This document shows positions 9,113 to 9,162 of a stretch of 15,506 nucleotides of DNA, piece by piece (the stretch's first letter is position 1; each line of letters opens with the position of its first letter). Position numbers and translations under genes: made by a program. The stretch is taken from the IMG/VR virus record IMGVR_UViG_2700989487_000004. The stretch is one strand, 5' to 3'. The notes under the pieces are model-generated. The model was not told the DNA's origin, did no database searches, and saw only the letters and a program-made list of their open reading frames with translations. This DNA is from a virus. Taxonomy: Duplodnaviria; Heunggongvirae; Uroviricota; Caudoviricetes.

Positions 9113-9162
9113 CAGCCCCGTTCAGGGGCTGATTTCAGGTACAAAAAAAGCCCTTACGGGCC
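9113..9162 (-). terminator. Two hairpins after the capsid gene: GCCC-GUAA-GGGC + U7 (terminator-like, 9143-9162) and CAGCCCC-UGAAC-GGGGCUG (9113-9131)
   Basis: Read on the minus strand: a short GC stem with GNRA-type loop followed by seven U, then a 7-bp stem-loop ending just before the GGAGA ribosome-binding site of the next gene. Confidence 0.45.

Follow-up and report, generated by a model that had tools for sequence, protein, structure and literature searches.

Genes and RNA features at the capsid-cement junction

The stretch of DNA analyzed here (the window) comprises 15,506 nucleotides (nt) of the virus record IMGVR_UViG_2700989487_000004, and the element under study is a pair of RNA hairpins at positions 9,113 to 9,162, in the gap between a gene for a ClpP-protease/scaffold/major capsid fusion protein and a gene for a cement (decoration) protein. 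The window covers the late (structural) operon of a lambdoid prophage of the mEp460/cdtI type and is transcribed from the minus strand. A 1-kb query was 100% identical to a prophage of E. coli O145 RM9872 and 98–99.6% identical to phages mEp460, Ayreon, cdtI, and others; over this query, mEp460 and Ayreon were 98.6–98.8% identical to the window. The junction region was found in 1834 of 5426 complete E. coli genomes, or about a third. The features of the junction, ordered 5' to 3' on the transcribed strand, are as follows.

9186..11144, minus strand: ClpP-protease/scaffold/major capsid fusion gene (Pfam, mEp460 and Ayreon annotations agree)
9163..9185, minus strand: spacer in the 3' untranslated region (3' UTR), 23 nt from the capsid stop to hairpin 1, non-conserved
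9150..9161, minus strand: hairpin 1, GCCC-GUAA-GGGC, a G+C stem of 4 base pairs (bp) with a tetraloop (sequence read, ViennaRNA fold)
9143..9149, minus strand: U7 tract abutting the hairpin 1 stem (sequence read)
9132..9142, minus strand: linker GUACCUGAAAU, A/U-rich, single-stranded, 11 nt (sequence read)
9113..9131, minus strand: hairpin 2, CAGCCCC-UGAAC-GGGGCUG, a 7-bp stem (sequence read, ViennaRNA fold)
9105..9109, minus strand: Shine-Dalgarno (SD) sequence GGAGA of the cement gene, 3 nt (UGC) beyond hairpin 2
8776..9099, minus strand: cement/decoration protein gene, 107 residues, start codon ATG at 9099-9097 (Pfam PF09956 Phage_cement_2, E 1.8e-20)

The capsid fusion gene matched the Pfam families CLP_protease (E 3.4e-36) and Phage_capsid_4 (E 9.3e-55) and ends in the stop codon TAA at 9188-9186 on the minus strand. 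Its start codon, the ATG at 11144, was set by homology with the mEp460 annotation, the mechanical open reading frame (ORF) of 739 codons running from 11405 to 9186. The family of the downstream gene, PF09956 Phage_cement_2, is the former DUF2190, and RefSeq names the 107-residue product a DUF2190 family protein; no sequence match to it was found among solved structures. Gifsy-2 shares the head type of the window prophage (PMC12315714), and its capsid bears a trimeric cement protein on every 3-fold axis (PMC8538268). If the 107-residue gene family is the source of that trimeric protein, which is a candidate identity, the product would be needed in a copy number roughly equal to that of the capsid protein.

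The two hairpins had been noticed in an earlier note on this DNA made from its letters alone, and both were read correctly there. The GCCC-GUAA-GGGC hairpin with its seven U downstream of the capsid stop was right to the base (9161-9143), as was the placement of the 7-bp stem-loop just before the ribosome-binding site (RBS) of the next gene (9131-9113, with GGAG 3 nt further on). In hairpin 1, the 5' arm GCCC (9161-9158) and the 3' arm GGGC (9153-9150) enclose the loop GUAA (9157-9154), and a G9162.U9149 wobble forms an optional fifth pair. In hairpin 2, the loop UGAAC (9124-9120) is closed by the arms CAGCCCC (9131-9125) and GGGGCUG (9119-9113). Folding with ViennaRNA, a check that the note had proposed, predicted both hairpins in a 106-nt context as well as alone. 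Hairpin 1 with its tail and the wobble pair had a free energy of -8.8 kcal/mol (z -2.1), the 12-mer by itself being at about -6.5 kcal/mol. Hairpin 2 had a free energy of -13.9 kcal/mol (z -4.6), and none of 200 shuffled sequences folded as well.

Hairpin 1 was also picked up by a generic terminator scan of the window, a noisy scan that returned 30 sites versus 13.5 expected. The exact motif GCCC-N4-GGGC-T7 occurred once in the window, versus 0.00 expected in shuffled sequences. There was no sigma-70-like promoter site in the spacer. No Rfam family matched the window at gathering thresholds, including the phage antiterminator RNAs such as HK022 put, and at a permissive E-value the sole match was CC0196 on the opposite strand, which was at chance level (15.5 bits versus a threshold of 35).

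A mini-ORF of nine codons (9136-9165, minus strand; ATG GCC CGT AAG GGC TTT TTT TGT ACC TGA) runs across hairpin 1 to a stop codon within the linker's conserved CUGA. It was judged to be a product of chance. Its start triplet is ATG or GTG in some relatives only and is elsewhere ACG, GAC, ACT, CTC, or others, and no reading frame of the capsid gene stays open into it.

Conservation of hairpin 1 and its U tract

Related junctions were collected using the capsid C-terminus as an anchor, which yielded 48 loci in species-representative genomes plus a further 80 in viral contigs, with genera that included Escherichia, Salmonella, Klebsiella, Pantoea, Edwardsiella, Rahnella, Yersinia, Xenorhabdus, Proteus, Providencia, Sodalis, and others. 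Scanning viral contigs for the strict motif supplied 120 more loci, these being the first 120 matches. The motif lay directly 3' of this capsid family in 119 of those first 120 matches; the remaining one (L139) had 63 nt of upstream sequence only, too little to judge. The pooled loci represented 88 distinct versions of the junction, of which 87 were usable once a degenerate Sodalis locus (L015) had been left out. That Sodalis locus keeps both hairpins (1303-1358) with no recognizable cement gene after them and is probably part of a decaying prophage.

The conservation of each segment was assessed over 1064 pairs of loci with less than 80% identity between their capsid 3' ends (mean 73%, and 41% at third codon positions). 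Between these distant pairs, the stem of hairpin 1 together with U7 was 99.7% identical, the linker 76%, and hairpin 2 57%. The spacer 5' of hairpin 1 was 46% identical, which amounts to alignment noise, and its length in relatives ranged from 18 to 31 nt. The stem of hairpin 1 and the T7 were each invariant in 71 of 72 versions. The stem never varies within the enterobacterial clade, so there is no covariation in it. The linker, which is 8–13 nt long across versions, follows the pattern xUxxCU(G/A)xAA; in alignment A2, C27 was invariant and T24, T28, A31, and A32 were each conserved at 90% or more.

The loop of hairpin 1 was always 4 nt long and otherwise free, the 87 versions having 15 tetraloop sequences between them. 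The GNRA loop to which the earlier note drew attention is present in the window (GUAA) and is not a conserved property of the element, as only 45 of the 87 versions (52%) have one, the looser pattern GNNA being found in 65 (75%). The note's second check, conservation in related prophages, bore out both hairpins: the module was found in 87 distinct versions across Enterobacterales prophages, in every case between these genes or at the end of the capsid gene. In one relative, L116 (1300-1360), hairpin 1 and U7 are lost and a CCGGCC-GCA-GGCCGG hairpin is retained 1 nt before AGGAGA.

In two Buttiauxella loci (L021 and L031, at about 1320-1400), the cement gene is absent, and both hairpins stand directly before the next gene, whose product starts MTTPFEQLSARMDKV. 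As these loci keep the hairpins without the cement gene, the module appears to travel with the end of the capsid gene. Single-base variants were seen among near-identical E. coli prophages: hairpin 1 reads TCCC and not GCCC in L060, the 3' arm of hairpin 2 reads GGGGCAG in L075, and the 5' arm CAGCCTC in L090 gives a G.U pair. Such variants are compatible with sequencing error or with purifying selection under which decay occasionally occurs.

The homologous 20 nt of mEp460, GGCCCGTAAGGGCTTTTTTT, are labeled as a "rho-independent terminator" in its RefSeq record (NC_019716 6334-6353), and terminator features are placed at the same junction in Ayreon (MF807953) and mEp213 (NC_019720 6294-6312). 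All three features are software predictions that cover hairpin 1 only.

Hairpin 2 keeps its structure as its sequence drifts

Hairpin 2 was aligned in 83 versions with a covariance model (R1) that was fitted to the proposed structure, so the covariation count is not independent of the model. Plain MAFFT alignment followed by RNAalifold recovered hairpin 1 only, as register shifts hid hairpin 2. In the model alignment, 94.8% of the cells could pair, versus no more than 63% when the registers were slid. Each of the 8 model pairs had changed on both sides, 111 cells were compensatory, and none of 500 shuffles reached the observed covariation. Folding each version without any alignment gave z scores below -2 in 97% of the 87 (median -4.2). 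About 37 cells held G.U pairs, which on the other strand would be A.C, and these indicate that the structure belongs to the sense RNA.

The stems of hairpin 2 were 5–10 bp long, mostly 7–8 bp, and carried 50 different loop sequences, with UUCG and GCAA the commonest. The SD sequence was GGAGA in 70 of the 87 versions, and the helix ended mostly 1–3 nt upstream of GGAG. In the enterobacterial clade, the U tract ended a nearly constant 31.6 +/- 1.1 nt before the SD. The predicted probability of being unpaired had a mean of 0.60 for the start codon and a median of 0.52 for the SD. As read from these alignments, selection on hairpin 2 is for stability and position only, with the sequences of stem and loop free to change.

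A distant clade and the element after gene V

The distant clade consists of one locus from a Pseudomonas genome (L056) and loci from viral contigs, giving 29 versions. At the same junction, 27 of these have a single hairpin, CCCCGC-N3-6-GCGGGG, with 17 different loops, and the folds add outer A-U, G-C, or G.U pairs. A U-rich tail, mostly UUUGUUGUUUCU, follows the hairpin, and the SD begins 11–19 nt beyond the stem. This clade lacks a second hairpin at the junction; hairpin 2 is present in the enterobacterial clade only. Since a different stem with a U-rich tail occupies the same junction, the feature conserved across the clades is a hairpin plus a U tract, which is the anatomy of an intrinsic terminator. 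The capsid frame of L056 (Pseudomonas sp. A-RE-19) is divided into two ORFs (62..928 and 974..1327, in the interval 62-1327), which suggests a frameshifted pseudogene or an assembly error.

The window has a further element of this general kind.

6722..6745, minus strand: element after the major tail gene V, GCCCCG-AUUAUC-CGGGGC followed by U6 (-13.0 kcal/mol, z -3.2)

Only 6 nt further on is the G chaperone gene's SD (GGAGA), with no second hairpin, and the element is annotated as a terminator in both mEp460 and Ayreon. As at the capsid junction of the distant clade, the U tract adjoins an SD. The earlier note had seen a parallel between this element and the capsid junction: the shared hairpin and U tract are real, but the element after V is built differently, with its single hairpin. 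The mEp460 record has a third "rho-independent terminator" at 9389-9406 (locus L001 7094-7111), inside the tail assembly gene T of the G/GT region.

A probable terminator-type hairpin and a proposed RBS-framing hairpin

We think it reasonably probable, judging from sequence comparison, that the capsid fusion and cement genes are separated by a two-part intercistronic RNA module made up of an intrinsic terminator-type element and a hairpin that frames the RBS. Hairpin 1 with U7 is probably a short-stemmed intrinsic (Rho-independent) terminator that is leaky. It has a G+C hairpin with four G-C pairs, an uninterrupted U7 abutting the stem, and a structure that is kept across the clades despite sequence change. 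It lies in the sense orientation 23 nt past the stop codon (18–31 nt in relatives). Terminators directly after the major capsid gene have been described in T7 and LUZ100 (PMC10134795), and inefficient terminators are considered to be a phage strategy for balancing expression (PMC9163698).

The comparison shows the module's anatomy, conservation, covariation, and strand and its tie to this gene junction; the activities that we infer for it are termination, leakiness, stabilization of the message, and an effect on translation. Hairpin 1 and U7 would stop RNA polymerase that had not been made terminator-resistant by the late antiterminator, and so might provide a fail-safe against stray transcription of the structural genes in the lysogen. 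It would be only partly effective, on account of its minimal stem and its position 18–31 nt from the stop codon. This is a range in which termination at lambda tR2 grew with distance, efficiency rising away from the stop codon to a maximum beyond about 30 bp (PMC4824070). By analogy, hairpin 1 could possibly be masked in part by the terminating ribosome. On late mRNA that had been read through, the hairpin would still fold and could guard the capsid segment at its 3' end against 3' exonucleases, a protection that would favor the capsid mRNA. Hairpin 2 would then frame the RBS of the cement gene by keeping the purine-rich SD from pairing with upstream RNA. When folded, it would also shorten the distance from the single-stranded U/A-rich stretch (U7 plus linker) to the SD, and the cement gene might thereby be initiated independently and efficiently. 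Hairpin 2 may thus serve to insulate the SD, to set the U/A-rich stretch beside it, or to cap a 5' end made by processing.

Several points weigh against this interpretation. Typical intrinsic terminators have stems of 5–14 bp, and the 4-bp stem of hairpin 1, at about -6.5 kcal/mol, is at the short, weak extreme, so its real efficiency may be low. Antiterminated late transcription in lambdoid phages would be expected to read through terminators, as is known for lambda Q. By this analogy, attenuation during lytic growth could be negligible; the late antiterminator gene of this prophage lies outside the window. Literature searches gave no transcript ends, Term-seq, rapid amplification of cDNA ends (RACE), termination assays, expression, or Hfq data for these prophages. 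The full sequence invariance of the hairpin 1 stem exceeds what stability would simply require, plausibly because a 4-bp stem tolerates no mismatched intermediate. There were also exceptions in the comparison set, as L116 has hairpin 2 without hairpin 1, and another relative, L299, has a hairpin without a U tract. In addition, a down-step before the cement gene would not be obviously useful if cement protein is needed at about 1:1 with capsid protein. The earlier note's suggestion of attenuation or mRNA stabilization is favored by the terminator anatomy, the reference annotation, and the conservation at the junction, but its rationale, that the element follows the most abundant structural protein, is weakened, since the following gene probably specifies a capsid component of similar abundance.

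Alternative interpretations

Two of the other explanations considered are compatible with the terminator-type and RBS-framing module, the second of them with its RBS-framing part, and both seem to us rather unlikely as the principal function. In one, an RNase E-like endonuclease would cut the A/U-rich stretch between the hairpins of read-through mRNA, leaving hairpin 1 to cap the 3' end of the capsid segment and hairpin 2 as a near-terminal 5' stem-loop guarding the downstream segment. Two stable hairpins do flank a conserved, unpaired A/U-rich stretch of 18–20 nt (U7 plus the linker of 8–13 nt), and the selection of hairpin 2 for stability alone, with UUCG and GCAA loops commonest, would suit a protective cap. 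TIER-seq work in Salmonella reportedly gave RNase E a preference for RN↓WUU. The GC↓UUU at the foot of hairpin 1 fits that preference, a match that is invariant along with the sequence there. The linker next to hairpin 2, however, varies (AAAUC, AAACC, AAAAAC, AAUUC) and does not keep a U at +2, and the distant clade lacks a second hairpin, so a paired-cap design is not general. In the other, which we consider about equally doubtful, U7 and the single-stranded A/U-rich linker would give the 30S subunit a landing (standby) site, with ribosomal protein S1 possibly involved. The folded hairpin 2 would bring this site to the SD, so that the output of cement protein could roughly match that of capsid protein even with a terminator in between. 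A U-rich tract does lie shortly 5' of the cement SD in both clades: the 32-nt gap between U tract and SD in the enterobacterial clade becomes about 13 unpaired nt once hairpin 2 folds, comparable to the 11–19 nt of the distant clade, and the presumed need for cement and capsid proteins at about 1:1 supplies a rationale. The initiation region of E. coli atpE is reportedly a classic upstream translational enhancer, from the 1985 work of McCarthy and co-workers. The atpB-atpE spacer of MG1655 (L257 2188-2236, minus strand), GUUUUAACUGAAACAAACUGGAGACUGUCAUG, and the window, UUUUUUUGUACCUGAAAUC[hairpin 2]GUGCGGAGACAGUUAUG, share a U-run, CUGAAA, and GGAGAC(A/U)GU(U/C)AUG. A/U-rich enhancers 5' of the SD have been described as the most abundant class of enhancer (PMC2176067). 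Nevertheless, the likeness to atpE comes down to a 6-mer and a strong consensus RBS and could be due to chance, the predicted accessibility of the SD is middling at its median of 0.52, and a U tract after a hairpin is already accounted for by termination. Elements of both explanations might be united in a device for making about equal numbers of capsid and cement subunits, with the U tract of the terminator doubling as a ribosome landing or enhancer site and hairpin 2 setting it beside the SD, capping a processed 5' end, or both. We regard this as improbable, somewhat more so than either explanation by itself; if it were true, one short RNA would set both the survival of the capsid message and the strength of translation of the next cistron.

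The earlier note had also proposed that hairpin 2 might occlude the RBS. Throttling of downstream translation by hairpin 2 and an extension of it is suggested by the minimum-energy fold of the window, which adds CUG/CGG pairs and pairs the first two G of GGAG in 65% of the ensemble, with 3.9 expected linker-SD pairs; both the CU of the linker and the GG of the SD are conserved. This did not hold as a general feature: the covarying helix ends mostly 1–3 nt before the SD, neither the SD nor the start codon is inside it, and across the 87 versions the median was 0.39 expected linker-SD pairs, with the SD about half unpaired. Since the CU and GG never vary, there is no covariation to back their pairing, and many copies of the cement protein are probably required, so we consider occlusion unlikely. 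Recognition by a protein, be it autoregulation by the capsid, scaffold, or cement protein or binding of Hfq to hairpin 1 with U7 or to hairpin 2, appears very unlikely. The invariance of GCCC...GGGC-U7, at 41% identity in third codon positions, is stronger than is usual for terminators, and a hairpin with a U tail is the standard 3' module bound by Hfq, a layout that hairpin 1 and U7 share. But the loop of hairpin 1 is free, as are the stem and loop of hairpin 2, which argues against sequence-specific recognition of this kind. The hairpin of the distant clade has a different sequence. The unconserved 3' UTR (46%), moreover, holds no conserved seed for a small RNA (sRNA) derived from it. Least probable of all, and hardly credible to us, is a function in the DNA itself, either as a palindromic protein site or as a "linker" promoting homologous exchange of head-gene modules. 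As DNA, GCCC-N4-GGGC is palindromic, an island of about 30 bp of near-identity lies between two diverged genes, and the two Buttiauxella loci missing the cement gene have kept the module. Against this, the G.U pairs and compensatory changes of hairpin 2 point to sense RNA, the one-sided T7 and free N4 suit a terminator and not a symmetric DNA site, and the island of identity is short.

Three other candidates were rejected. A terminator for an antisense transcript was dismissed because the reverse complement of either hairpin has no T run after it and the G.U pairs are sense-specific. A regulatory RNA derived from the 3' UTR was dismissed because the spacer upstream of hairpin 1 is unconserved. 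The sequence of sRNA-17 of E. coli K1, reported in an mEp460-like prophage (PMC7719688), is absent from the window.

Comparison with known systems and significance

Hairpin 1 with U7 recalls the intrinsic terminators directly after the major capsid gene of phages, such as T-phi after gene 10 of T7 and that of LUZ100, where a sense-strand G+C hairpin and U tract also lie tens of nt past the stop codon of the top structural gene, within a long late transcription unit. Those capsid terminators are regarded as leaky, with a role in balancing expression (PMC10134795, PMC9163698). The element described here differs in having a stem of only 4 bp, in being followed by a gene for what is presumably a high-copy capsid component, and in being known from sequence alone. 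It would also be transcribed by the host RNA polymerase, presumably with a lambdoid late antiterminator, and not by a phage polymerase. Hairpin 2 resembles the 5' stem-loops of the ompA type and synthetic RBS insulator hairpins in being a stable hairpin of arbitrary sequence just 5' of an SD. The ompA-type hairpins act at the extreme 5' end of a transcript, a role that hairpin 2 could have only if a 5' end arose beside it. The atpE enhancer likewise lies between two cistrons of an operon and precedes a gene whose product is needed in high copy number, but its U-rich part leads to the SD with no hairpin in between and is not preceded by a terminator hairpin.

The annotated terminators of mEp460, Ayreon, and mEp213 are the same element at the same junction as hairpin 1 and U7, which is to say that hairpin 1 is known at the level of annotation. 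These annotations do not extend to hairpin 2, the conserved linker, or the breadth of conservation, for which there is no Rfam family either. The kind of element is familiar, and the finding is well supported but ordinary; it leaves the general understanding of phage gene expression unchanged. For annotation, it offers a transferable cis-element, a terminator-type hairpin plus a covariation-supported hairpin flanking an RBS, with R1 as a working covariance model, and the junction is carried by many other Enterobacterales prophages as well. If functional, it would be a compact natural case of a single-promoter late operon tuning adjacent high-copy structural genes. With 87 natural variants to choose from, this "terminator, spacer, insulated RBS" unit may serve as a small part for phage or operon design.

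Elsewhere in the window, the strongest terminator-like match of all was found in the portal gene at 12030-12050 on the plus strand, where GCCGTCC-GGATACG-GGACGGC is followed by TTTTAT in the antisense orientation. Adjoining it on the sense strand is a second hairpin (12010-11987, minus strand).

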